Positions 10,460 through 48,304 of a stretch of DNA of 64,000 bases are shown here, one piece after another; the stretch's first letter is position 1; every line of letters begins with the position of its first letter. The notes beneath the pieces were generated by a model that was given only the letters and a program-made list of their open reading frames with translations, was not told the origin of the DNA and searched no databases. The stretch is from NCBI RefSeq assembly GCF_050920415.1, contig NZ_CP169309.1. One strand, given 5' to 3'. The stretch comes from Escherichia coli. GTDB lineage: Bacteria > Pseudomonadota > Gammaproteobacteria > Enterobacterales > Enterobacteriaceae. The translations under genes and the position numbers were made by a program.

Positions 10460-11272
10460 ATGGCAACAACACAACAATCTGGATTTGCACCTGCTGCATC
10501 ACCTCTCGCTTCGACCATCGTTCAGACCCCGGATGACGCGATTGTAGCAGGCATCACCTCTATCCCTTCACAAGGGGATAACATGCCTGCTTACCATGCC
10601 AGACCAAAGCAGAGCGATGGCCTACTACCAGTGGTCATTGTAGTGCAGGAAATTTTTGGCGTGCATGAACATATCCGCGATATTTGTCGCCGTCTGGCAC
10701 TGGAGGGGTATCTGGCTATCGCACCTGAACTTTACTTCCGCGAAGGCGATCCGAATGATTTTGCCGATATCCCTACGCTGCTTAGCGGTCTGGTAGCAAA
10801 AGTGCCTGACTCGCAAGTACTGGCCGATCTCGATCATGTCGCCAGTTGGGCGTCACGCAACGGCGGCGATGTTCATCGCTTAATGATCACCGGATTTTGC
10901 TGGGGTGGGCGCATCACCTGGCTGTATGCTGCGCATAACCCGCAACTGAAAGCGGCGGTGGCATGGTACGGCAAACTGACAGGCGATAAGTCGCTGAATT
11001 CACCGAAACAACCTGTTGATATCGCAACCGATCTTAACGCGCCGGTTCTCGGCTTGTATGGTGGTCAGGATAACAGCATTCCGCAGGAGAGCGTTGAAAC
11101 CATGCGCCAGGCGCTGCGGGCTGCTAATGCGAAAGCAGAGATTATCGTCTACCCGGATGCCGGGCATGCATTCAACGCCGATTATCGCCCGAGCTATCAT
11201 GCCGAATCTGCGAAAGATGGCTGGCAGCGAATGCTGGAGTGGTTTAAGCGGTATGGTGGGAAACGGAATTAG
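10460..11272 (+). CDS. dlhH: Dienelactone-hydrolase-family protein DlhH (YsgA), 270 aa
   Basis: Track frame 10394..11272; start set at ATG 10460 (MATTQQSGFAPAASPL...) with GGAG upstream; alpha/beta hydrolase motifs. Confidence 0.85.
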   Translation: MATTQQSGFAPAASPLASTIVQTPDDAIVAGITSIPSQGDNMPAYHARPKQSDGLLPVVIVVQEIFGVHEHIRDICRRLALEGYLAIAPELYFREGDPNDFADIPTLLSGLVAKVPDSQVLADLDHVASWASRNGGDVHRLMITGFCWGGRITWLYAAHNPQLKAAVAWYGKLTGDKSLNSPKQPVDIATDLNAPVLGLYGGQDNSIPQESVETMRQALRAANAKAEIIVYPDAGHAFNADYRPSYHAESAKDGWQRMLEWFKRYGGKRN

Positions 11273-11663
11273 TTTCCTCTTAGTCTATATTTGAGATGGT
11301 GAGTGAACGAATGCGTTTTGCTGCCATCTCTGTCCCCCAAAAAATAATCAGTATGAATTGATTGGAGAGCACGACTCCGCTATTTGACCTTAAGAAAGTC
11401 GGCAAGTCATAGTCATAAATGAGTCTCTTCACTGGCAGACACCTTAAAGATTTACCATCAACTCCCATTCTCAAACAAACATTAATTATTATCAACACAT
11501 TCACATTAATTATAAATTATCTCAGACCTTCCTGATAAAAAGATATTAAAGTGAAACATTTTGTTTTTCACATTTTAGTTCATCCCTATTAGGCGTAAAT
11601 AAAGGTAAAAAATAACAATACTATTTTTCTTTCACAAAAGAATTAACAAAAGGTTTTTCAAGG

Positions 11664-12062
11664 ATGAGTGATATTATTTACCTGACCATAACCGGAGAAC
11701 AACACGGATGTATTTCCTCTCGTTGTGGAACGAGCACATCAATAGGTAATCGCTGGCAGATTGGTCATGAAGATGAAATCTTCGCGTTCTCGCTCTCTAA
11801 TAGTATTACGAATACAGGAAAAGGGTCACATTTGCATGGCCTTAGTTTCTGTAAGTTGATTGACAAAAGCTCCCCGTTACTTATTAACGCTATTAACAAT
11901 AACGAGCAGTTGTTCATGGAGTTTGACTTCTATCGGATCAATAGATTTGGTCGATGGGAGAAATATTACAACATTCAACTCCGCGGCGCGCTCTTATCAG
12001 CAATCAATCACCTGTTTACGGAGAACAATCTGGATACAGAAACCATCACTGTCAGTTATTAA
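11664..12062 (+). CDS. Hcp-family (T6SS tube protein) domain ORF, 132 aa, ends at TAA in frame with the downstream toxin-like ORF
   Basis: MSDIIYLTITGEQHG...GKGSHLHGLSFCKLIDKSSPLL...FDFYRINRFGRWEKYYNIQL fits the Hcp-family pattern; AT-rich. Confidence 0.7.
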   Translation: MSDIIYLTITGEQHGCISSRCGTSTSIGNRWQIGHEDEIFAFSLSNSITNTGKGSHLHGLSFCKLIDKSSPLLINAINNNEQLFMEFDFYRINRFGRWEKYYNIQLRGALLSAINHLFTENNLDTETITVSY

Positions 12063-12107
12063 TATATACTCTCCAGGCATCTGATTGCTAATACTGAATT
12101 TAGTTAT

Positions 12108-12812
12108 TTGGCATTTCCCGATAACTACAATCGTCTGTTTATACCACGGCCAAAAACTAAAGATGATAATGGCCTCAAAACACTCAATAGTAAAGCTGTT
12201 GGCAGACTGCTTGCTGCTGGCGGCATATACAATGGGAATATCGAAGGATTCAGGGAAACAGCAAACAAGTTGGGGGGAGATGCACCTGCTGGTTACGATC
12301 AAGTTATGGATAACAAAGGGTTACTCATCGCTGGTGCTTCAATAGTTGCTGGAGCAGTTCTGGGGAGAATGAGACTCCCTGATTTGGAATCACTTGAGCA
12401 TTTCGGAGCCAGAGGAGCAGTATCAGGAAGACCATTTAATCCCGACCTTGCCGGTGGTCCAATAGAAAATCTGACGACAGATGGCGTAACAATCAACAGG
12501 GAAGGTATCGCTATTGTTGAAAAACACATAGCCAGATTTGGTCATGACCCTGTAAATGAAGTGATGATCAATAGACTGAAAGACATTGAGAAAGGAAAAA
12601 TCCCCCCAGAACAAGTAGATCTTAACTTCTATACTCATGAATGTCGGGAATATCAGCGTTACTGTAATCTTGGTTGGGAAACAGGACAACCTGATGGTGA
12701 CGCAGGCTATGCACTCTGGAATCATACGCATACTGCTACTCTAGAAGATTATAAACTTAAGGGAGAACTTAATGACTTATACCACCAGGATGCACTTGAC
12801 TATGATAACTGA
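12108..12812 (+). CDS. Toxin-like C-terminal domain ORF (class undetermined), same frame as upstream Hcp ORF; 234 aa from TTG
   Basis: Same reading frame as 11664..12062 with only one stop (TAA 12060-12062) and 15 open codons between; no ATG or SD of its own. Confidence 0.6.
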   Translation: MAFPDNYNRLFIPRPKTKDDNGLKTLNSKAVGRLLAAGGIYNGNIEGFRETANKLGGDAPAGYDQVMDNKGLLIAGASIVAGAVLGRMRLPDLESLEHFGARGAVSGRPFNPDLAGGPIENLTTDGVTINREGIAIVEKHIARFGHDPVNEVMINRLKDIEKGKIPPEQVDLNFYTHECREYQRYCNLGWETGQPDGDAGYALWNHTHTATLEDYKLKGELNDLYHQDALDYDN

Positions 12813-13047
12813 AACTGAAATTAACGTACTGAAAGTTATGGCTGAGAAAGATATAAACTGGAACTGGATGAATCTCGATCGCACACTATCTATAAGGCAA
12901 ATTCCAGGATTCGGTAATGTTGTTAACATTGTTAACAAATTAGCTAACGAGGGTTTGGTTATTATTGAGGATAGCGGACATAAGTCTATGCCTCACTACC
13001 ACGTTACTGAAAAGGGATACAATCTCGTGAAAAGTGAGAATAAATAA
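12802..13047 (+). CDS. Small putative immunity protein, 81 aa
   Basis: ATG at 12802 overlaps the toxin ORF stop (ATGATAACTGA); track frame 12772..13047. Confidence 0.55.
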   Translation: MITETEINVLKVMAEKDINWNWMNLDRTLSIRQIPGFGNVVNIVNKLANEGLVIIEDSGHKSMPHYHVTEKGYNLVKSENK

Positions 13048-13141
13048 CGTAGCGTTGATTACTGAACAAATCGCTCAGGATTATATTTTGCGAAAAAAAT
13101 GATTCGGTTATTTCTGTGTCTGAACGGCCGCAGATAGCAAA

Positions 13142-24467: not shown

Positions 24468-25358
24468 ATGGATGCAAAACAAACGCGGCAGGGCGTATTA
24501 CTCGCTCTTGCCGCTTATTTTATTTGGGGTATTGCGCCAGCGTACTTCAAGCTGATTTACTACGTGCCCGCCGATGAGATCCTGACGCATCGCGTGATCT
24601 GGTCGTTTTTCTTTATGGTGGTGCTGATGAGCATCTGCCGCCAGTGGTCTTATTTAAAAACGCTAATTCAGACGCCACAGAAAATTTTTATGCTGGCCGT
24701 CTCTGCCGTACTGATTGGCGGCAACTGGCTACTGTTTATCTGGGCGGTGAACAATCACCATATGCTGGAAGCGAGCCTCGGTTATTTTATTAACCCACTG
24801 GTGAACATTGTGCTGGGGATGATTTTCCTCGGCGAGCGATTCCGCCGGATGCAATGGCTGGCGGTGATTCTGGCGATATGTGGTGTATTGGTCCAGCTCT
24901 GGACTTTTGGTTCGCTGCCAATCATCGCGCTGGGGCTGGCGTTTAGTTTTGCCTTCTACGGCCTGGTACGCAAGAAAATTGCCGTTGAAGCGCAAACCGG
25001 CATGTTAATCGAAACCATGTGGCTGCTGCCCGTGGCGGCGATTTACCTGTTTGCTATTGCCGACAGCTCAACCAGCCATATGGGGCAAAACCCGATGTCG
25101 CTTAATTTACTGCTGATCGCCGCCGGTATTGTCACCACCGTTCCACTGTTGTGTTTTACTGCGGCTGCGACACGCCTGCGTCTCTCAACGTTAGGCTTTT
25201 TTCAGTACATTGGCCCGACGCTGATGTTCCTGCTGGCTGTGACGTTTTATGGTGAAAAACCGGGTGCCGATAAGATGGTGACCTTCGCCTTTATTTGGGT
25301 GGCGCTGGCAATTTTTGTGATGGATGCGATTTATACGCAGCGTAGAACGTCCAAATAA
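24468..25358 (+). CDS. rarD: RarD EamA-family transporter, 296 aa
   Basis: MDAKQTRQGVLLALAAYFIWGIAPAYFKLIYYVPADEILTHRV... Confidence 0.95.
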   Translation: MDAKQTRQGVLLALAAYFIWGIAPAYFKLIYYVPADEILTHRVIWSFFFMVVLMSICRQWSYLKTLIQTPQKIFMLAVSAVLIGGNWLLFIWAVNNHHMLEASLGYFINPLVNIVLGMIFLGERFRRMQWLAVILAICGVLVQLWTFGSLPIIALGLAFSFAFYGLVRKKIAVEAQTGMLIETMWLLPVAAIYLFAIADSSTSHMGQNPMSLNLLLIAAGIVTTVPLLCFTAAATRLRLSTLGFFQYIGPTLMFLLAVTFYGEKPGADKMVTFAFIWVALAIFVMDAIYTQRRTSK

Positions 25359-25668
25359 AAAATAAATATATTCTGAAAAAATATGCCGACTCTTGCATGA
25401 GAGTGGGCATATTGCCATGCTGACAGGAGACTCACATAAGGAAAGGCAGAATTTCCAGACGTCGTTGTATATTTTCATTTGCTTTAATAAATTTCATTTT
25501 TGGTAAATTCAGCATTATGTTATTAGCGATGAGCAAGACCAATCATTAACCAAGTTCTCTTCAGAATGTAATGAAAAATGTGAAGTGCATTTCTTTTTTA
25601 AAATTTTTTTACCCTATTATTTCTTATCAAATTAACATTGCCCTTAATTATAAGAAAGGAGAATATAA

Positions 25669-26517
25669 ATGAACAACATATTAGGCTCATCAATTAATAT
25701 GCCCTGTACACTTTTCGAAACTATTACTTTATTCGATGATTTTTCTGCTGATGATATGCAGTATGGGGATATGGAAGAACAAGATTTTCTCTCACTCGGC
25801 TTAAGCGACATCTCTGCAAAAGTTGATCCTTACCGCCTCATTAAATACCATTTTCCTGGGCCGAATTCTACTTATGGTGCTTTTAGTGTTCCAACTTCTG
25901 GAACAAAAATATCACAAAGTGAATGTATTGATATTTTATTTGCAGAAATGAAAGATCTGGCAAAAATGTTTTCCTTTTTTGGACAATACAAAACACTCAT
26001 CCAGGATCTGATTGATCATTTTAGATATGGAAATGGCAACAGTTTCCATAGCCAGGAATTGAACTTATCTTTTCATGAACGAATAAACAAATATGATTAT
26101 AATAGCCCAATACGTGTAATCAAAGAATGTATCGAAAATGATATTTCTTCAACACCTACGATAGGATACCGGCCTCTTCTCCTACAAAAGATTAAGACCG
26201 AATTACTTTCATCAAGACTAAATAAATTCAATGATTTTAAAGATAATTTTAATGGCCTGGGAATCAGCATTCATGATATCTCAGCTCAAAAAATATCTCT
26301 TTTAAATTTTCAAAAATATCCTATGGGCTGGAGCGCTACCATTCATTTCATAGCACAAGACCACTTTGGTTTGGATGTGACTGATATAAAAAACAAGATT
26401 TACAACAAGTATAGATTTTTTCGCATATGGTTCTTTTTACAACGGCATAAAGACTTTGCTTTCAAACCTTTTTTTACCAATTTTAACACTATCGAAAGAA
26501 TCGAAAATTATCTATGA
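25669..26517 (+). CDS. Hypothetical protein, 282 aa, AT-rich gene at the yigG/yigF position
   Basis: Long ORF in AT-rich DNA with a Shine-Dalgarno AAGGAG 7 nt upstream; no family I can assign. Confidence 0.6.
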   Translation: MNNILGSSINMPCTLFETITLFDDFSADDMQYGDMEEQDFLSLGLSDISAKVDPYRLIKYHFPGPNSTYGAFSVPTSGTKISQSECIDILFAEMKDLAKMFSFFGQYKTLIQDLIDHFRYGNGNSFHSQELNLSFHERINKYDYNSPIRVIKECIENDISSTPTIGYRPLLLQKIKTELLSSRLNKFNDFKDNFNGLGISIHDISAQKISLLNFQKYPMGWSATIHFIAQDHFGLDVTDIKNKIYNKYRFFRIWFFLQRHKDFAFKPFFTNFNTIERIENYL

Positions 26518-26942
26518 AAAGCAAACTCCAGAAAATTATATTATATTTATTTCTTATATGCTGCATCTATAATTTATGGACATTGCGTCCTGTACAGATT
26601 TTGTATACATACTCTGATGCTGGCAATTCAGTCTTTCTGGTCGTTGATCATCTGCCATGGACTGATAGCGATAAAATAAATTGGTATCTGAAGCATCAGG
26701 ATGAAATTAAAAGTCAAAATCCCCTACCAGAAGGTAGTTGGCATACCTGGTATGTTATTGATATCGGTAATGGCTTCACTGACTATAAAAAATATATCGA
26801 AGGGCTGTATGAAGATCTCTACTGTTTCCCGACGATTAAGAGCAATGATAATTGCATCGTAAAAAACTATTTAATGGTTATTAATGAATATCCTTACCGT
26901 AATACTCATTTTTTATTGCTGATAACAATGAGTATCAACTAA
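26514..26942 (+). CDS. Hypothetical small protein with N-terminal hydrophobic segment, 142 aa, translationally coupled to upstream gene
   Basis: ATGA start/stop overlap with 25669..26517; MKSKLQKIILYLFLICCIYNLW signal/anchor-like N-terminus. Confidence 0.6.
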   Translation: MKSKLQKIILYLFLICCIYNLWTLRPVQILYTYSDAGNSVFLVVDHLPWTDSDKINWYLKHQDEIKSQNPLPEGSWHTWYVIDIGNGFTDYKKYIEGLYEDLYCFPTIKSNDNCIVKNYLMVINEYPYRNTHFLLLITMSIN

Positions 26943-35084: not shown

Positions 35085-37112
35085 ATGCACTATCGCAATG
35101 TGGTTTGTTTGTTGTCTTTTTTAGTTCCGTCAGCGTGGGGATGCTCGCTCGGTGAACCTGATCATAATATTTACCAGAAACAGGGAAAAGGCGTGGTATA
35201 CCTGCGCCCTAATGAAGAGACAAATCTTTCGTTACCGGAAGTAAATTACCAGCGACTGCGTCGTTTACCTGATTTATTCATTGCTCCTGACACCCAGGAC
35301 GATGGGGAAAAAGAACCGCCGTTAAACGACCTTACCACCGATTATATTGATCAGGGCGCATGGGCCTGGTATCCAAATTATGCTTACTTTAGCGATGGCC
35401 GTTTTGTCATTTATGCGGGCAAGATTGTACAAAATCCATCTGGTTATCCACCGGTCGATGTAGCCTCGTTCCATTCATGGGGCGATTTTGCCGTCGATAA
35501 AAACAGCATTTATTACAAAGGCCAACGGACAGATGAAAATGGCGGCAAGCAACGCGTCGATGAAAAAACGCTGCGCAAAGTAGGATTAGGTAGCCGTTGG
35601 ATGCCTGATCGGCTGGGATTGGTGCTACGTGACGCGCATTTTCTTTATATCGATGGGCACCGTTTTGATAACCCAGAGAGTTTTTCCGTGATCGCGCAAA
35701 AATCCTGGGGTCAACAAGGGAAATTCGCTTCAACGTTTTTTCCCTGCATTGCCTACCCCTTTGGCCCGTGGGATATGCTTACCCGCACACGAACAAAGTT
35801 GCTGATCAATGGAGAGCAACTGGATGCCGATCCGGACAATTTTTCTGTCGTTCGCTGGATGCCCGGCACCCTGTTTAGCTGGCGTGATAAACACGGCGAG
35901 CATCGTAAAGTCATTGATCAGGTTCGTTTGGCAAGGAATGAAGATATATCCCGGCAATGTGACAACTTTACGCTGTTAGAAAAAAAGGTGTTCTGGCGCA
36001 AGGGGCCAGATTGTGAGCAGGAAGAATTACCCAGTCTCGACCCGGAGCAGTTTCACCCGATCAGTGACATCGTGGCGCAGTATCAGGACAAGTTGTATGC
36101 AATCAGTAAGACCCCCTTCGGTGAAAATCAGTTGGAGATCATCACCCTGGATAACCCGAATCTGATCATCAATAAACGTTTTAATGCAGGAAGGCATCAT
36201 GGCTATTTACTCACCCGATCAACAAATTGGGACGGACATGAGAAAGACGGTTTACAGGTGTTTGAATCCGTTGGCCCACTGATACTGCTGGACTACCGTG
36301 TGCCGAATGAAGCAGATGCACACCGTGGCAATAACCCGCATTACAAAAAATGGTTTGCTCGCGACGATCGTTACGTTTATGCATTCGATGGTGCGCAGCT
36401 TTGGCGTTACCCTACGCAATATCCCAAAGCGGCACGTATCAAAGCCGCTAAAGACGACTGGCTGAACGTCAGCCTTAGCCAGTTGGACGGTGAGATAATG
36501 AAAGATGGCTCATTTACTCCCACTGGCATCAAGCACACATCCTCTTTAAAACCCGCCAAGGCATACGAAGATGGGGACAATGAATCTTCATTTATCGTAA
36601 ATAAATCGGGAGTAGGCTGGCGAAAAGCGCTTTCACCCGACCTGCAATGGAGTGAGTGGCATTACCTGGAAGGCATTGATCCAAAAAAGTTTCATCTGAT
36701 TACCGAACGTATTGCACAGTACAAAAACCAACTCTACGTCGTCAGGCGCTCGCATTTTGGAGAAGATCGGCTCGAAATCATAGAGTTGGAGTCATCTTTG
36801 CCCATCAAAAATAAACCGATAAATACGGGCAAGGAGCGTCATTACTTTCTGCAAAGTACCCGACAAAAACAGGATGTGCAGGTATTCACCAGCAGCGGTG
36901 CGCTGATAGCAACGGAGCGCTTTGCTTATGACGATAGCTATGTCTACACCTGGATTGACGATCAGCTTTATCGCACACCCTCCCCCTGCCCAGCGAAAAC
37001 ATACGTCAGAGAAAAGAATGTCCGTGAAATTCATAACAGCGACATTATTATTCCGGTGACGGAGGAATCGTGCCGGAACGCAGCAGCAGACGGGCAAACT
37101 TTGAAGCCCTGA
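35085..37112 (+). CDS. Large secreted DKNYY-repeat family protein, 675 aa from ATG (685 from upstream GTG)
   Basis: Signal peptide MHYRNVVCLLSFLVPSAWGC; motif DKNSIYYKGQR; two internally duplicated segments (FHPISDIVAQYQDKLY...FGENQLEIITLD / FHLITERIAQYKNQLY...FGEDRLEIIELE); AGGA 9 nt before ATG 35085. Confidence 0.7.
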   Translation: MHYRNVVCLLSFLVPSAWGCSLGEPDHNIYQKQGKGVVYLRPNEETNLSLPEVNYQRLRRLPDLFIAPDTQDDGEKEPPLNDLTTDYIDQGAWAWYPNYAYFSDGRFVIYAGKIVQNPSGYPPVDVASFHSWGDFAVDKNSIYYKGQRTDENGGKQRVDEKTLRKVGLGSRWMPDRLGLVLRDAHFLYIDGHRFDNPESFSVIAQKSWGQQGKFASTFFPCIAYPFGPWDMLTRTRTKLLINGEQLDADPDNFSVVRWMPGTLFSWRDKHGEHRKVIDQVRLARNEDISRQCDNFTLLEKKVFWRKGPDCEQEELPSLDPEQFHPISDIVAQYQDKLYAISKTPFGENQLEIITLDNPNLIINKRFNAGRHHGYLLTRSTNWDGHEKDGLQVFESVGPLILLDYRVPNEADAHRGNNPHYKKWFARDDRYVYAFDGAQLWRYPTQYPKAARIKAAKDDWLNVSLSQLDGEIMKDGSFTPTGIKHTSSLKPAKAYEDGDNESSFIVNKSGVGWRKALSPDLQWSEWHYLEGIDPKKFHLITERIAQYKNQLYVVRRSHFGEDRLEIIELESSLPIKNKPINTGKERHYFLQSTRQKQDVQVFTSSGALIATERFAYDDSYVYTWIDDQLYRTPSPCPAKTYVREKNVREIHNSDIIIPVTEESCRNAAADGQTLKP

Positions 37113-42152: not shown

Positions 42153-43361
42153 ATGACGGAACAAGAAAAAACCTCCGCCGTGGTTGAAGAGACCAGGGAG
42201 GCCGTGGACACCACGTCACAACCTGTCGCAACAGAAAAAAAGAGCAAGAACAACACCGCATTGATTCTCAGCGCGGTGGCTATCGCTATTGCTCTGGCGG
42301 CGGGCGTCGGTTTGTATGGCTGGGGTAAACAACAGGCCGTCAATCAGACTGCCACCAGCGATGCCCTGGCTAACCAACTTACGGCACTGCAAAAAGCCCA
42401 GGAGAGCCAAAAAGCCGAGCTGGAAGGCATTATCAAGCAACAAGCTACGCAGCTTGAACAGGCGAATCGTCAGCAAGAAACGCTGGCAAAACAGCTGGAT
42501 GAAGTCCAACAAAAGGTCGCGACTATTTCCGGCAGCGATGCTAAAACCTGGCTGCTGGCTCAGGCTGATTTCCTGGTGAAACTCGCCGGACGGAAGCTGT
42601 GGAGCGATCAGGACGTCACGACCGCTGCAGCGTTGCTGAAAAGTGCAGATGCCAGCCTGGCGGATATGAATGACCCGAGTCTGATTACCGTTCGTCGGGC
42701 AATTACCGATGATATCGCCAGCCTTTCTGCGGTATCGCAGGTGGATTATGACGGCATCATCCTTAAGCTGAATCAGCTTTCTAATCAGGTAGATAACCTG
42801 CGTCTGGCCGATAATGACAGCGATGGTTCACCAATGGATTCCGACGGTGAAGAGCTTTCCAGTTCCCTCAGCGAATGGCGTATCAATCTACAAAAAAGCT
42901 GGCAGAACTTTATGGACAACTTCATTACGATTCGCCGTCGTGATGACACCGCCGTACCACTGTTAGCACCGAATCAGGATATCTATCTGCGCGAAAATAT
43001 TCGCTCCCGCCTGCTGGTCGCGGCACAAGCCGTACCGCGTCATCAGGAAGAGACTTATCGCCAGGCGCTGGAGAATGTCTCCACCTGGGTACGTGCTTAC
43101 TACGATACTGATGATGCCACCACCAAAGCGTTCCTCGACGAGGTGGACCAGTTAAGCCAGCAAAATATCTCGATGGATCTCCCGGAAACTCTGCAAAGCC
43201 AGGCGATGCTGGAAAAACTGATGCAGACGCGCGTGCGCAATCTGCTGGCGCAACCAGCAGCAGAGGCTAAACCTGCACCTGCACCTGCACCTGCACCTGC
43301 ACCTGCACCTGCACCTGCACCGCAAGCTGATACTCCGGCAGCCGCGCCGCAAGGAGAATAA
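42153..43361 (+). CDS. hemX: HemX membrane protein, 402 aa
   Basis: [48 protein letters not shown]...; C-terminal (PA)8 tract. Confidence 0.9.
43272..43319 (+). repeat. Perfect hexanucleotide tandem repeat (CCTGCA)x8 inside hemX, encoding (Pro-Ala)8
   Basis: Counted directly in sequence. Confidence 0.85.
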
Positions 43362-43363
43362 CC

Positions 43364-44560
43364 ATGCTAAAAGTGTTATTGCTCTTTGTGTTGCTGATTG
43401 CGGGGATCGTGGTCGGCCCGATGATTGCCGGTCATCAGGGTTACGTGCTGATCCAGACCGATACCTACAATATCGAAACCAGCGTCACGGGCCTGGCGAT
43501 CATTTTGATTCTGGCGATGGTAGTGCTGTTTGCCATTGAGTGGCTACTGCGGCGGATCTTCCGCACAGGCGCACACACCCGTGGGTGGTTTATCGGACGT
43601 AAGCGTCGCCGTGCCCGTAAGCAGACCGAACAGGCGCTGCTGAAACTAGCGGAAGGCGATTATCAGCAAGTTGAAAAGCTGATGGCGAAAAATGCCGATC
43701 ACGCTGAACAACCGGTGGTGAACTATCTGCTGGCTGCCGAAGCCGCGCAACAACGCGGTGATGAAGCACGCGCCAACCAACATCTGGAACGCGCAGCGGA
43801 GCTGGCCGGCAACGACACAATTCCGGTAGAAATCACCCGTGTACGTCTGCAACTGGCCCGTAATGAAAACCATGCAGCACGTCACGGCGTTGATAAGCTG
43901 CTGGAAGTTACGCCACGCCATCCGGAAGTATTACGTCTGGCGGAACAGGCGTATATCCGCACTGGTGCATGGAGTTCGCTGCTGGATATCATCCCATCAA
44001 TGGCAAAAGCCCACGTTGGCGATGAAGAGCATCGTGCAATGCTGGAACAACAGGCATGGATTGGCCTGATGGATCAGGCGCGTGCCGATAACGGTAGCGA
44101 AGGTTTGCGTAACTGGTGGAAAAACCAAAGCCGGAAAACGCGTCATCAGGTGGCGTTACAGGTGGCAATGGCGGAACATCTTATTGAATGTGACGATCAT
44201 GATACTGCCCAGCAAATTATCATCGACGGCCTGAAACGCCAGTATGACGATCGCCTGCTGCTGCCGATCCCGCGTCTGAAAACCAATAACCCGGAACAGC
44301 TGGAAAAAGTGCTGCGCCAACAGATCAAAAACGTGGGCGATCGCCCGTTGTTGTGGAGCACACTGGGTCAGTCGCTGATGAAGCACGGAGAATGGCAGGA
44401 AGCATCGCTCGCCTTCCGCGCAGCGCTGAAACAACGTCCGGACGCCTACGATTACGCATGGCTTGCCGACGCGCTGGACAGACTGCACAAGCCGGAAGAA
44501 GCCGCAGCGATGCGTCGCGATGGCTTGATGTTAACGTTGCAGAACAACCCGCCACAGTAG
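43364..44560 (+). CDS. hemY: HemY TPR-containing membrane protein, 398 aa
   Basis: MLKVLLLFVLLIAGIVVGPMIAGHQGYVLIQTDTYNIETSVTGLAIIL... Confidence 0.95.
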   Translation: MLKVLLLFVLLIAGIVVGPMIAGHQGYVLIQTDTYNIETSVTGLAIILILAMVVLFAIEWLLRRIFRTGAHTRGWFIGRKRRRARKQTEQALLKLAEGDYQQVEKLMAKNADHAEQPVVNYLLAAEAAQQRGDEARANQHLERAAELAGNDTIPVEITRVRLQLARNENHAARHGVDKLLEVTPRHPEVLRLAEQAYIRTGAWSSLLDIIPSMAKAHVGDEEHRAMLEQQAWIGLMDQARADNGSEGLRNWWKNQSRKTRHQVALQVAMAEHLIECDDHDTAQQIIIDGLKRQYDDRLLLPIPRLKTNNPEQLEKVLRQQIKNVGDRPLLWSTLGQSLMKHGEWQEASLAFRAALKQRPDAYDYAWLADALDRLHKPEEAAAMRRDGLMLTLQNNPPQ

Positions 44561-44609
44561 CTCTTTCTCACCCGGAGGCAAGCACCTCCGGGACCTTTCT
44601 GATATATAA

Positions 44610-44814
44610 AAAAACGCCTGCTCTTATTACGGAGCAGGCGTTAAAACAGGTCTGTATGACAACAAGTGGGTGCTTCACTCAACGTTGTGTCCATGGTGTC
44701 TGATGAGGCATAAGCGACATCTGTCAGTGGACGATAAGCACCGTAAACGGCTCTGCGTCATTCCGGAGTTTATGAGGCACTAAGGCGAACATAAGAGATG
44801 GAATGAGCATCTAC
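44610..44814 (-). ncRNA. glmZ: GlmZ small regulatory RNA, including its intrinsic terminator
   Basis: Minus-strand sequence GTAGATGCTCATTCCATCTCTTATGTTCGCC...CAGACCTGTTTTAACGCCTGCTCCGTAATAAGAGCAGGCGTTTTTTT matches my recollection of GlmZ; hemY-aslA spacer is its known location. Confidence 0.8.
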
Positions 44815-45238
44815 TCGTTTATTATGCCACAGAGAACCGTGAAATAACATCCCTTAACACTTGTTATGAGATAATTCTGTAATCCTCTTTGCTTCCTGAG
44901 TAATAACTTCCTGAGTGAATATTTCTCCTGCGCACGATTCTACACATATATATAATGAATAATAAAAGTCATTCAATTAATAACATATATATTAATTGCC
45001 GTTAAAACTAAAAACAGCATCAATAATCAACGCGATATAACATCACCGCCTTACATATCACCTGCGCCAGAGGTAGGATTGAAAACGCTCTCCTGATTTT
45101 CCAATTCATTATCTGTATAAATAAATAATTTATTTTCATCACTATTATTTATGCAATCATCCTGTCAGGGAGAGGGATCTCAATTATCAATGCTTAATTA
45201 CGTCAACATTTTGACGACATGAAACCGGAGCATTTTGC

Positions 45239-46894
45239 ATGGAATTTTCGTTTTCACCCAAACTTCTTGTTGTGGCTGTCGCCGCCGCTCTTCCACTCAT
45301 GGCCAGCGCAGCAGATACCCCGTCAACCGCCACCGCACGCAAAGGCTTTGCCGGATACGATCACCCAAACCAGTATCTGGTTAAACCGGCGACCACTATT
45401 GCCGACAACATGATGCCGGTGATGCAGCATCCTGCACAAGACAAAGAAACCCAGCAGAAGCTGGCAGAACTTGAGAAAAAAACCGGTAAGAAACCGAACG
45501 TGGTTGTTTTCTTGCTGGATGATGTGGGCTGGATGGATGTTGGCTTTAACGGCGGTGGCGTGGCGGTGGGTAACCCTACACCAGATATCGACGCCGTTGC
45601 CAGCCAGGGGCTGATTTTAACTTCGGCGTATTCTCAACCGAGTTCTTCCCCAACCCGCGCCACGATTCTCACCGGACAATACTCCATCCACCACGGCATT
45701 CTGATGCCGCCAATGTACGGGCAGCCGGGCGGTCTGCAAGGGTTAACCACGCTGCCACAGTTGCTGCACGATCAGGGCTACGTCACCCAGGCTATCGGGA
45801 AATGGCATATGGGGGAAAACAAAGAGTCGCAGCCGCAGAACGTTGGCTTTGATGATTTCCGCGGCTTTAACTCGGTATCTGATATGTATACCGAATGGCG
45901 TGATGTTCATGTCAACCCGGAAGTCGCCCTGAGCCCGGATCGTTCTGAATACATCCAAAAACTGCCGTTCAGCAAAGATGACGTTCATGCCGTGCGCGGC
46001 GGTGAACAGGAAGCCATTGCCGACATTACGCCGAAATATATGGAAGATCTGGATCAACGCTGGATGGAATATGGCGTTAAGTTCCTCGACAAGATGGCAA
46101 AGAGCGATAAGCCATTCTTCCTCTACTATGGCACTCGCGGCTGTCACTTCGATAACTACCCGAACGCCAAATATGCGGGTAGCTCTCCGGCGCGCACCTC
46201 TTACGGCGACTGCATGGTGGAGATGAACGATATCTTCGCCAATCTGTATAAAGCACTGGAGAAAAACGGTCAGCTTGATAACACGCTGATTGTGTTCACC
46301 TCTGATAACGGTCCGGAAGCTGAAGTTCCGCCGCACGGTCGCACGCCGTTCCGCGGTGCGAAAGGTTCTACATGGGAAGGCGGCGTTCGTGTGCCAACCT
46401 TCGTTTACTGGAAAGGGATGATCCAACCGCGTAAATCTGACGGTATTGTCGATCTGGCGGATCTCTTCCCTACGGCGCTGGATCTGGCAGGACATCCTGG
46501 AGCGAAAGTGGCGAATTTAGTGCCGAAAACCACCTTTATTGATGGTGTGGACCAGACATCTTTCTTCCTGGGAACAAATGGTCAGTCTAACCGTAAGGCC
46601 GAGCACTACTTCCTCAACGGCAAACTTTCTGCTGTGCGTATGGATGAGTTTAAATATCACGTACTCATCCAACAGCCATACGCTTATACCCAGAGCGGGT
46701 ATCAGGGTGGATTCACCGGCACAGTAATGCAAACGGCGGGATCGTCGGTGTTTAACCTGTACACCGATCCGCAGGAAAGCGACTCTATCGGCGTGCGCCA
46801 TATCCCAATGGGTGTACCGCTACAGACCGAAATGCACGCGTATATGGAGATCCTGAAAAAATATCCGCCGCGCGCGCAGATTAAATCTGATTAA
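45239..46894 (+). CDS. aslA: AslA arylsulfatase-family protein, 551 aa
   Basis: [28 protein letters not shown]...; sulfatase motif [15 protein letters not shown]. Confidence 0.9.
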
Positions 46895-46930
46895 GCCGGC
46901 GCTATCGCTACATCGGGCCACACTGACCTT

Positions 46931-47034
46931 GCCGGATGCGGCGTGAACGCCTTATCCGGCCTACAAGCCTTGCAAATTCAATAAATTGCAGCGTCCTGTA
47001 GGCCGGATAAGATGCGTCAGCATCGCATCCGGCA
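46931..47034. repeat. REP pair (BIME) between convergent aslA and aslB
   Basis: gccggatgcggcgtgaacgccttatccggcctac ... gtaggccggataagatgcgtcagcatcgcatccggca. Confidence 0.8.
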
Positions 47035-47068
47035 ATCAACCGCAGGCGGCCACAAAATGGCTGCTTTT

Positions 47069-48304
47069 TTACTTATTCACCACCATCAAATGCGCCTGCA
47101 TAATGTCGCTGGCCGGGCGACCGTGCGCCAGCAAATCAGCCATTGCTTTAAGATATGGCGGTAGATAGCGGAAATAACGCTGATACCCGGCACACAAATA
47201 ATTCAGCCCCGGCTTACCGCTGGCATCGAGCATAAAGCGATGTTTCGGGCAGCCTCCCCAACATGCTTTTAACACGTTACAACTGCGACACTGCGCCGGT
47301 AACAGCTTAAATTTATCTTCTCCAAACACCTGCTGCTGCGGGGAATCTACCATTTCTGCAATTGTTTGCTGAAGCATATTCCCCAGTCGATATTGCGGAT
47401 AAACATAGTGATCGCAGGCGTAAACGTCGCCGTTGTGTTCGACAATCACCGAGCGTCCACAAGTCGGCTGATGATGGCAAACCGCACCCGGCGCACCGAC
47501 AAAATTGGCAAACGCCCATTCGATATTCATCACGAAAATCTTGCCGACGTCACGTTTGATCCAGTGGTCAAAAATTGCCACCAGAAACTCACCGAACTCA
47601 TCGGGGCGCACCGACCATTCTGTCAGTTCCCCCTGAATATCACCAGGCGCATGTAATTTCAGTCCATTGCGGGCAGCTGTTTCATCAGCCAGGCGCTCCA
47701 CCACCGGAATAAACTGGATAAACTCAACGCCTGCATTGCACAAAAAATCATAAACCTGTAACGGTTGCTGCGCGCTGGTGCGGTTGACACAGACCAGCAC
47801 GTTATAGTCGACATGATGTTTTTGCAGGAGCGTCAGGGCACGCATCACCAGCTTATGCGTGGGTCTGCCACCTTTGGTCACGCGATAATGATTGTGGATC
47901 TCAGCCGGACCGTCCAGCGATAACCCAACCAGAAAATGATTTTCTGCCAGAAATGCACACCATTCATCATCGAGCAGCACACCGTTAGTCTGAAAGCTGT
48001 TACTTATCTTCCTGCCAGCACCATATTTCGCCTGTAGCGCCACGGCACGTCGGTAAAAATCCAGCCCGAGTAACGTTGGTTCGCCGCCCTGCCAGGTAAA
48101 AGCCACTTCGTTTTGGGGTTCGCTGGCGGCGATATAGTGACGGACATACGCTTCCAGCGTGTCATCGTCCATATGCGCAACTGGCTTTTCGCGGTAAAGG
48201 GATTGTTTTTCGAGATAAAAACAGTAGTCACAGTTCAGATTACAATCGGAACCGCTTGGTTTCGCCATCACATGAAAAGCACGCGTTGGAACCTGTTGCA
48301 GCAT
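47069..48304 (-). CDS. aslB: AslB anaerobic sulfatase-maturating radical-SAM enzyme, 411 aa
   Basis: Track frame to 48334; start set at MLQQVPTRAFHVMAKPSGSDCNLNCDYCFY... (CxxxCxxC radical-SAM motif). Confidence 0.9.
   Translation of the reverse strand: MLQQVPTRAFHVMAKPSGSDCNLNCDYCFYLEKQSLYREKPVAHMDDDTLEAYVRHYIAASEPQNEVAFTWQGGEPTLLGLDFYRRAVALQAKYGAGRKISNSFQTNGVLLDDEWCAFLAENHFLVGLSLDGPAEIHNHYRVTKGGRPTHKLVMRALTLLQKHHVDYNVLVCVNRTSAQQPLQVYDFLCNAGVEFIQFIPVVERLADETAARNGLKLHAPGDIQGELTEWSVRPDEFGEFLVAIFDHWIKRDVGKIFVMNIEWAFANFVGAPGAVCHHQPTCGRSVIVEHNGDVYACDHYVYPQYRLGNMLQQTIAEMVDSPQQQVFGEDKFKLLPAQCRSCNVLKACWGGCPKHRFMLDASGKPGLNYLCAGYQRYFRYLPPYLKAMADLLAHGRPASDIMQAHLMVVNK

Follow-up and report, generated by a model that had tools for sequence, protein, structure and literature searches.

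The AT-rich glmZ-aslA spacer of an Escherichia coli strain: composition, conservation, and a candidate aslA promoter

The glmZ-aslA locus

We present here an analysis of an AT-rich tract at positions 44880 to 45238 of a 64,000-nucleotide stretch of Escherichia coli DNA (the window; contig NZ_CP169309.1), which an earlier note, made from the sequence alone, had placed upstream of aslA and read as typical of H-NS-bound, silenced promoters. The interval makes up the 359 bp nearest aslA in the 424-bp divergent spacer between glmZ and aslA (44815-45238). Its placement upstream of aslA agrees with the RefSeq annotation of strain MFDS1022581, to which the 901-bp query 44500-45400 is 100% identical; the same query has matches in 5425 of 5426 complete E. 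coli genomes. The local gene order in that annotation is hemD, hemX, and hemY (+), aslA (+), and aslB (-), and the arrangement around glmZ-aslA is the same in K-12. The features of the spacer and its flanks are collected in Table 1.

Genes across the window are only 93-98% identical to those of K-12, and the strain therefore represents a distant lineage relative to K-12. glmZ is 100% identical to K-12 glmZ. The spacer, which corresponds to 3,986,008-3,986,431 of the K-12 sequence NC_000913.3, is 424 bp long in both strains, without indels, at 93.6% identity and with GC contents of 32.5-33.5%. AslA differs from its K-12 counterpart at 8 of 552 amino acids against 21.7% divergence at 4-fold sites, which indicates that aslA is under purifying selection; the GC content of the gene is normal (~52%).

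Further differences from other genomes were noted in the window. hemX, among the genes most divergent from K-12 (93.6%, with indels), carries a 12-bp in-frame insertion (ACCTGCACCTGC) at 43271-43282 relative to the closest genome. The gap between the convergent aslA and aslB (46894-47100) is 77% identical to K-12, with indels, and contains REP-like repeats and weak, sub-threshold Rfam matches to naRNA4 and ES036. Between lptM and cyaY, positions 35085-37112 hold a gene for a 675-aa hypothetical protein that is missing from K-12, where the small yzcX is all that lies between the two.

A single copy of the spacer is found in 5422 of the 5426 complete E. coli genomes, and the body of aslA (45377-46800) in only 3697. 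In approximately 32% of the complete genomes, aslA is deleted except for its first 138 nt, which lie beside an intact aslB, and the spacer in these genomes is K-12-like and undecayed. Because these genomes have lost most of aslA and kept the spacer, spacer retention alone is no proof of selection for aslA control. In strain PSS-16, everything from glmZ -51 (44865 onward) through the 5′ part of aslA has been lost in a deletion next to an IS1 element, with the glmZ core promoter intact.

Table 1. Features of the glmZ-aslA spacer and its flanking genes (window coordinates)
Feature	Position	Strand	Basis or remark
glmZ small RNA gene	44608-44814	-	Rfam RF00083, 218.4 bits, full length; bounds the spacer, outside the tract
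glmZ terminator	44642-44613	-	
glmZ core sigma70 promoter, extended -10	44815-44854	-	Hexamer scan and Göpel 2011
Conserved block, glmZ -41 to -110	44855-44924		K-12 comparison
AT patch A, candidate H-NS nucleation DNA	44925-45049		Core 44940-44999, ~15-17% GC; upstream of aslA promoter candidate
Candidate aslA promoter (-35 CTTACA, 45050-45055; 18-bp spacer; -10 TAGGAT, 45074-45079)	45050-45079	+	Conservation only
Predicted aslA 5′ leader, ~150 nt	45086-45238	+	Composition and conservation
AT patch B, in predicted leader	45101-45160	+	18% GC
Escherichia-conserved block in leader	45165-45205	+	
Shine-Dalgarno (SD) sequence GGAG	45227-45230	+	GGAG and ATGGA invariant across genera
aslA, arylsulfatase AslA, 551 aa	45239-46894	+	ORF and RefSeq annotation of the genome identical over 44500-45400

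Base composition of the spacer

The tract has a GC content of 33.1%, compared with 51.5% for the window, and both A/T strings quoted in the earlier note are present, atatatataatgaataataaaag starting at 44946 and ataaataaataatttatttt at 45117. Relative to all 359-bp segments of the window (mean, 51.4% GC; SD, 5.2%), the tract lies approximately 3.5 SD below the mean; 2.0% of these segments are equally low in GC, and they are confined to few loci. At 21 nt, the A/T-only run at 45116-45136 is the joint longest of the 64 kb, and the tract holds 5 of the 57 A/T-only runs of at least 10 nt in the window. The AT content of the tract is far above chance at genomic composition.

While the low GC content that the earlier note reported is real, its description as extremely AT-rich is overstated when set against other intergenic DNA. 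Of the 32 intergenic regions that are 40 bp or longer, the spacer (33.5% GC) is the longest and has the fourth lowest GC content; those of at least 100 bp average 43.1% GC (SD, 6.7%). Two accessory islands in the window are also lower in GC, with 28% at 25191-26825 and 31% near 11300.

The first of these islands is the lowest-GC stretch of the window, and in it genes of the YPO3983 and DUF943 families replace K-12 yigF and yigG. The DUF943 open reading frame (ORF) is 142 aa long instead of 165 as a result of a 1-nt difference in a T-run near 26909. We regard 25191-26825 as a better candidate than the reported tract for classical H-NS silencing. In the second island (11188-13100; 31-38% GC), a tssD gene of type VI secretion and an HNH endonuclease gene survive as remnants; relative to the closest genome, the window lacks an IS2 element of ~1.33 kb here.

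Within the tract, composition is heterogeneous: cores of ~15% GC at 44940-44999 and 45100-45159 lie around an island of 50-53% GC at 45040-45099. TpA steps in the AT patches occur at approximately three times the window density, and patch A, with 30% GC overall, has 14.4 TpA steps per 100 bp compared with 4.4 for the window.

Conservation and promoter elements

A comparative set was obtained by an AslA scan of species-representative genomes, in which the matches were enterobacterial. glmZ lies directly upstream of aslA in several species of Escherichia, in Pseudocitrobacter, Kluyvera, and Superficieibacter, and in one further enterobacterium. The 14 glmZ-aslA spacers have GC contents of 30-36%, and 12 of them are 402-436 bp long, the other two being 303 and 496 bp. 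The collinearity of the spacer extends through the genus and to four other genera, and cross-genus alignment leaves only four conserved islands, namely, the glmZ -10, TTACA, TA..AT 18 nt downstream, and GGAG with the start codon. A very AT-rich stretch lies upstream of the conserved -35 in all genera. Salmonella enterica arizonae and a Citrobacter species carry an aslA homologue without glmZ within 3 kb upstream, and there too aslA is preceded by 400-600 bp of AT-rich DNA, down to 17% GC. Since it is kept upstream of aslA genes that are unlinked to glmZ, the AT-rich DNA goes with aslA and not with glmZ.

Transcription of E. coli glmZ comes from one constitutive sigma70 promoter, whose -35 and -10 elements were confirmed by mutation; 5′ deletions to -40 keep glmZ'-lacZ activity, so that no DNA beyond -40 is needed (Göpel et al. 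2011, PMC3045617). Our hexamer scan placed the glmZ start at 44814, coinciding with the 5′ end of the Rfam match, with -10 CATAAT at 44826-44821, preceded by TG, and -35 ATGTTA at 44850-44845, at an 18-bp spacing. The sequence TGnCATAAT is conserved in every glmZ-aslA spacer examined. The earlier note had assigned the glmZ promoter side to the AT-rich interval. This does not hold, since the promoter is confined to -40 to +1 and the interval begins at -66. The glmZ promoter thus adjoins the tract, is divergent, and has the spacer in common with it, but it lies outside the interval and is functionally independent of the tract.

In K-12, GlrR does not bind a -424 to +32 fragment, and glrR and rpoN deletions are without effect, whereas the Salmonella and Yersinia glmZ promoters are sigma54/GlrR/IHF dependent (Göpel et al. 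2011, PMC3045617). The latter have the small RNA gene and its position downstream of hemY in common with E. coli; unlike them, loci in which aslA adjoins glmZ have no sigma54 -24/-12, GlrR, or IHF sites. Searches for sigma54 (TGGCAC-N5-TTGC) and GlrR (TGTCN10GACA) sites found none in the spacer or in ten related spacers, and no IHF consensus site was found in the spacer.

On the aslA side, TTACA and TA..AT are invariant over 11 sequences from five genera, and the 18 nt between them vary at a fixed total length. We read the element as a sigma70 promoter signature because the conserved hexamers flank a freely varying spacer of constant total length. Within the genus, CTTACA and TAGGAT at an 18-bp spacing do not vary, and four more genera have recognisable versions; the Kluyvera counterpart is TTTACA-16-TATAAG, with the total length unchanged. 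A promoter-like element also precedes the aslA homologues unlinked to glmZ, with a hexamer spacing of 15 in the Citrobacter species and 19 in S. arizonae. The island around the element differs from K-12 at 1 of 51 positions. CTTACA-18-TAGGAT is thus a candidate sigma70 promoter for aslA, with a predicted start at approximately 45085-45087, equivalent to about 3,986,159-3,986,161 on the minus strand of K-12.

The candidate scores 8/12 against the consensus, and ten other sites at chance level on the same strand do at least as well. Our hexamer scan recovered the true glmZ promoter exactly and found 18 sites scoring at least 8/12, as expected for AT-rich DNA, so the consensus score alone cannot pick out the aslA promoter. 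A promoter prediction tool returned two minus-strand sites only, no more than in shuffled sequences. Neither the Cappable-seq nor the Kim 2012 supplements contain an entry for aslA that would give a mapped start. The promoters predicted by Shimada et al. (2014, PMC3946193), TTAACA-18-TGTAAT for aslA and TTGAGA-17-GATGAT for glmZ, are not those supported here; the former corresponds to 44854-44883, and its TGTAAT lacks the A at -10 position 2.

Divergence from K-12 varies strongly along the locus. In addition to the value for aslA, the 4-fold sites of aslB and hemY differ by 19.9% and 14.1%, respectively, and the whole spacer differs by 6.4%. Patch A (13.6%) is near the neutral rate and patch B is at 8.3%, with lower values for the promoter island (2.0%), the SD block (2.6%), and 44855-44924 (0%). 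Among nine E. coli strains, the AT patches are polymorphism hot spots, with 16-22% segregating sites, and spacer GC content ranges only from 31.6 to 33.5%. Patch A is dimorphic in these strains, with window-type and K-12-type haplotypes that differ at approximately 17 of 125 positions and few intermediates; its GC content stays at 32-34% despite this dimorphism. The AT patches are constrained in composition and not in sequence, which turns over. This pattern fits a protein that reads composition, such as H-NS, and it also fits AT-biased mutation under relaxed constraint.

The predicted leader was searched for further elements. Its minimum free energy was not significant (z = -1.4), the covariation term was -0.08 kcal/mol, and no Rfam family matched the spacer at E ≤ 1; these results give no indication of a structured leader RNA. 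A palindrome, CGTCAA-CATT-TTGACG, lies at 45201-45216, 11 nt upstream of the SD sequence; the K-12 palindrome is register shifted (GTCATC...GATGAC), and Escherichia albertii has one compensatory T/A to A/T change. We rejected it as a conserved element, as it was no better than shuffles and Kluyvera does not have it. Likewise, small ORFs within the spacer (minus-strand ORFs of 40 aa, one of 16 codons at 44954, and short upstream ORFs at 45152 and 45193) were rejected by alignment because their start or stop codons, read by eye, are unconserved across Escherichia.

H-NS binding and the role of the tract

The reading of the tract as H-NS-bound, silenced DNA is partly supported: its composition suits H-NS, and the homologous K-12 spacer is listed as binding H-NS in vitro in genomic SELEX. 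Shimada et al. (2014, PMC3946193) list "aslA < HNS > glmZ" in their Table 1 as a K-12 divergent spacer that binds RpoD holoenzyme, the HNS mark denoting an H-NS site by genomic SELEX. H-NS-type DNA upstream of aslA is thus already recorded for K-12, in vitro only. That "type-A" divergent spacer is the same locus with the same flanking genes, although the strain analyzed here carries the other patch A haplotype, with 17 differences in 125 positions. Neither aslA nor glmZ is named among the entries listed in the supplements to Freddolino 2021 and the MotB paper, and the literature searched contained no report on aslA expression in an hns mutant. The mRNA of aslA is condition dependent in E. coli K1, being LL-37 induced and indirectly RpoE dependent (PMC9147696).

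Motif matching was less favorable to H-NS. The 10-bp high-affinity H-NS motif TCGATAAATT has no match with two or fewer mismatches in 44815-45238, and elsewhere in the window it has 76 such matches compared with 59.5 expected. The best site in the spacer, TGTATAAATA at 45114-45123, has three mismatches, and the K-12 counterpart, TGGATAAATA, has two (read by eye). This nucleation motif, reportedly described by Lang and colleagues in 2007 as tCGATAAATT, is not obligatory for H-NS binding.

Two observations bear on the strength of any silencing. H-NS-bound regions longer than 1 kb are described as silencing, and those shorter than 1 kb as binding upstream and modulating more mildly (Kahramanoglou 2011); at ~420 bp, the tract would fall into the short, modulatory class and not that of long silencing filaments. 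Reporter and operator cassettes placed in the aslA-glmZ spacer by other laboratories worked as chromosomal reporters, and since they function there, strong spreading silencing is unlikely.

We consider it somewhat probable that the tract is the regulatory region of aslA, comprising a weak promoter between AT-rich, H-NS-binding patches and silenced by H-NS. In this model, the weak sigma70-type promoter CTTACA-18-TAGGAT would lie in a small island of normal GC content, transcription would start near 45086, and the leader of ~150 nt would end in the GGAG ribosome-binding site. TpA-rich patches of ~15-18% GC bracket the island, at 44940-45000 on its upstream side and, just downstream, at 45100-45160 in the predicted leader. 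H-NS, possibly with StpA, would coat the patches and occlude the weak promoter or bridge across it, so that aslA would be kept low in ordinary growth and expressed once conditions or a counter-silencer relieve H-NS. On the opposite side, the compact, constitutive, extended -10 promoter of glmZ, outside the tract, operates independently of it. Established are the composition, the pattern of conservation and, from the literature, the in vitro binding of H-NS and RNA polymerase to the K-12 spacer and the limits of the glmZ promoter; where the aslA promoter lies, that H-NS occupies the spacer in the cell, and that it silences aslA are inferred. Counted against the model are the failed motif search, the 8/12 promoter score, the working inserted cassettes, the near-neutral turnover of the patches, and the undecayed spacer of genomes that have lost most of aslA.

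Among the closest known relatives of such an arrangement are proU, with upstream and downstream regulatory elements, and bgl, both H-NS-repressed promoters with AT-rich elements on both sides. Like these, aslA has a modest sigma70 promoter candidate between AT- and TpA-rich DNA upstream and in the early transcribed region, together with in vitro H-NS binding. Unlike them, its AT patches are short (~60-bp cores in a 420-bp tract) and its silencing by H-NS is a prediction; aslA is also ancestral to the genus and not recently acquired.

The main rival to the silencing model is passive composition, in which a non-coding gap drifts to low GC content by AT-biased enterobacterial mutation, only the short islands are selected, and in vitro H-NS binding is incidental to composition, with little regulatory effect. 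We regard this as possible but doubtful. The 8-14% divergence of patches A and B comes close to the 14-22% of the 4-fold sites, both patches are hot spots of segregating variation (16-22% of sites), strains without aslA keep the same spacer, which serves as a neutral integration site, and the spacer is no outlier among the intergenic regions of the window. Drift alone sits less easily with cores of ~15% GC when intergenic DNA of the window averages 42%, with a low GC content that persists in all genera and genomic contexts examined although the sequence has turned over completely, or with the selection of the spacer by H-NS in SELEX. A different origin for the AT-rich DNA, as a remnant of recently acquired foreign DNA (the edge of a xenogeneic island or a mobile-element scar) silenced by H-NS for that reason, is hardly credible. 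The aslA-aslB pair and its AT-rich upstream DNA do occur in different genomic contexts, and IS1 has struck the spacer in one strain, but the spacer is single-copy in nearly all complete E. coli genomes (5422 of 5426) and collinear across the genus and four other genera, aslA has normal GC content and is under purifying selection, and the spacer is free of transposase, repeat, and integrase features.

That the tract is upstream regulatory DNA for glmZ, for example with activator or repressor sites acting on the glmZ promoter, is very unlikely. Such a role would accord with the block at glmZ -41 to -110, which has 0 of 70 differences from K-12, compared with 14-22% at 4-fold sites of the flanking genes, and contains a tandem 15-bp direct repeat (CTTCCTGAGTAATAA / CTTCCTGAGTGAATA, 44892-44921), and with a preprint that lists AraC as affecting a glmZ promoter reporter (PMC11230228). 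The AraC effects, however, differ in direction between assays (PMC11230228); across the genus only glmZ -27 to -65 is still conserved, the block being unconserved past -65 in other Escherichia species; and the spacer lacks GlrR, sigma54, and IHF consensus sites. The block is dispensable for glmZ'-lacZ according to the deletions of Göpel 2011, in which expression was intact to -40, GlrR was unbound, and loss of glrR or rpoN was neutral. A more novel reading, which we consider improbable, is that the AT-rich DNA and the weak promoter form a portable self-silencing cassette that has moved with aslA-aslB among chromosomal sites of the Enterobacteriaceae, and that its arrival beside glmZ displaced the ancestral sigma54/GlrR/IHF upstream activating region. 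Consistent with this, every spacer in which aslA adjoins glmZ lacks GlrR and sigma54 sites, and in the S. arizonae and Citrobacter species-representative genomes examined the aslA homologue lies away from glmZ, Salmonella and Citrobacter being genera that Göpel 2011 (PMC3045617) places in the sigma54-type glmZ promoter group. Klebsiella glmZ is sigma70-only according to the same study (PMC3045617). If true, the arrival of the cassette would explain the constitutive, sigma70-only glmZ of Escherichia, Kluyvera, Pseudocitrobacter, and Superficieibacter.

The tract is a known, ordinary regulatory region and not a new kind of element, and it most likely contains a weak aslA promoter between stretches of DNA that H-NS binds. 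These results leave the understanding of H-NS and glmZ unchanged, and their practical value is modest: the location of the glmZ promoter is corrected relative to the earlier reading, and the aslA promoter, yet to be mapped, now has a candidate position that can be tested, CTTACA-18-TAGGAT at 45050-45079. Surveys of E. coli genomes routinely count aslA as a "virulence gene", and the spacer serves as a neutral site for integration, so knowing which spacer bases are conserved is useful, as is knowing that an intact spacer precedes a deleted aslA in about a third of complete E. coli genomes. The AT patches offer a clear, small example of composition that is kept while sequence turns over.
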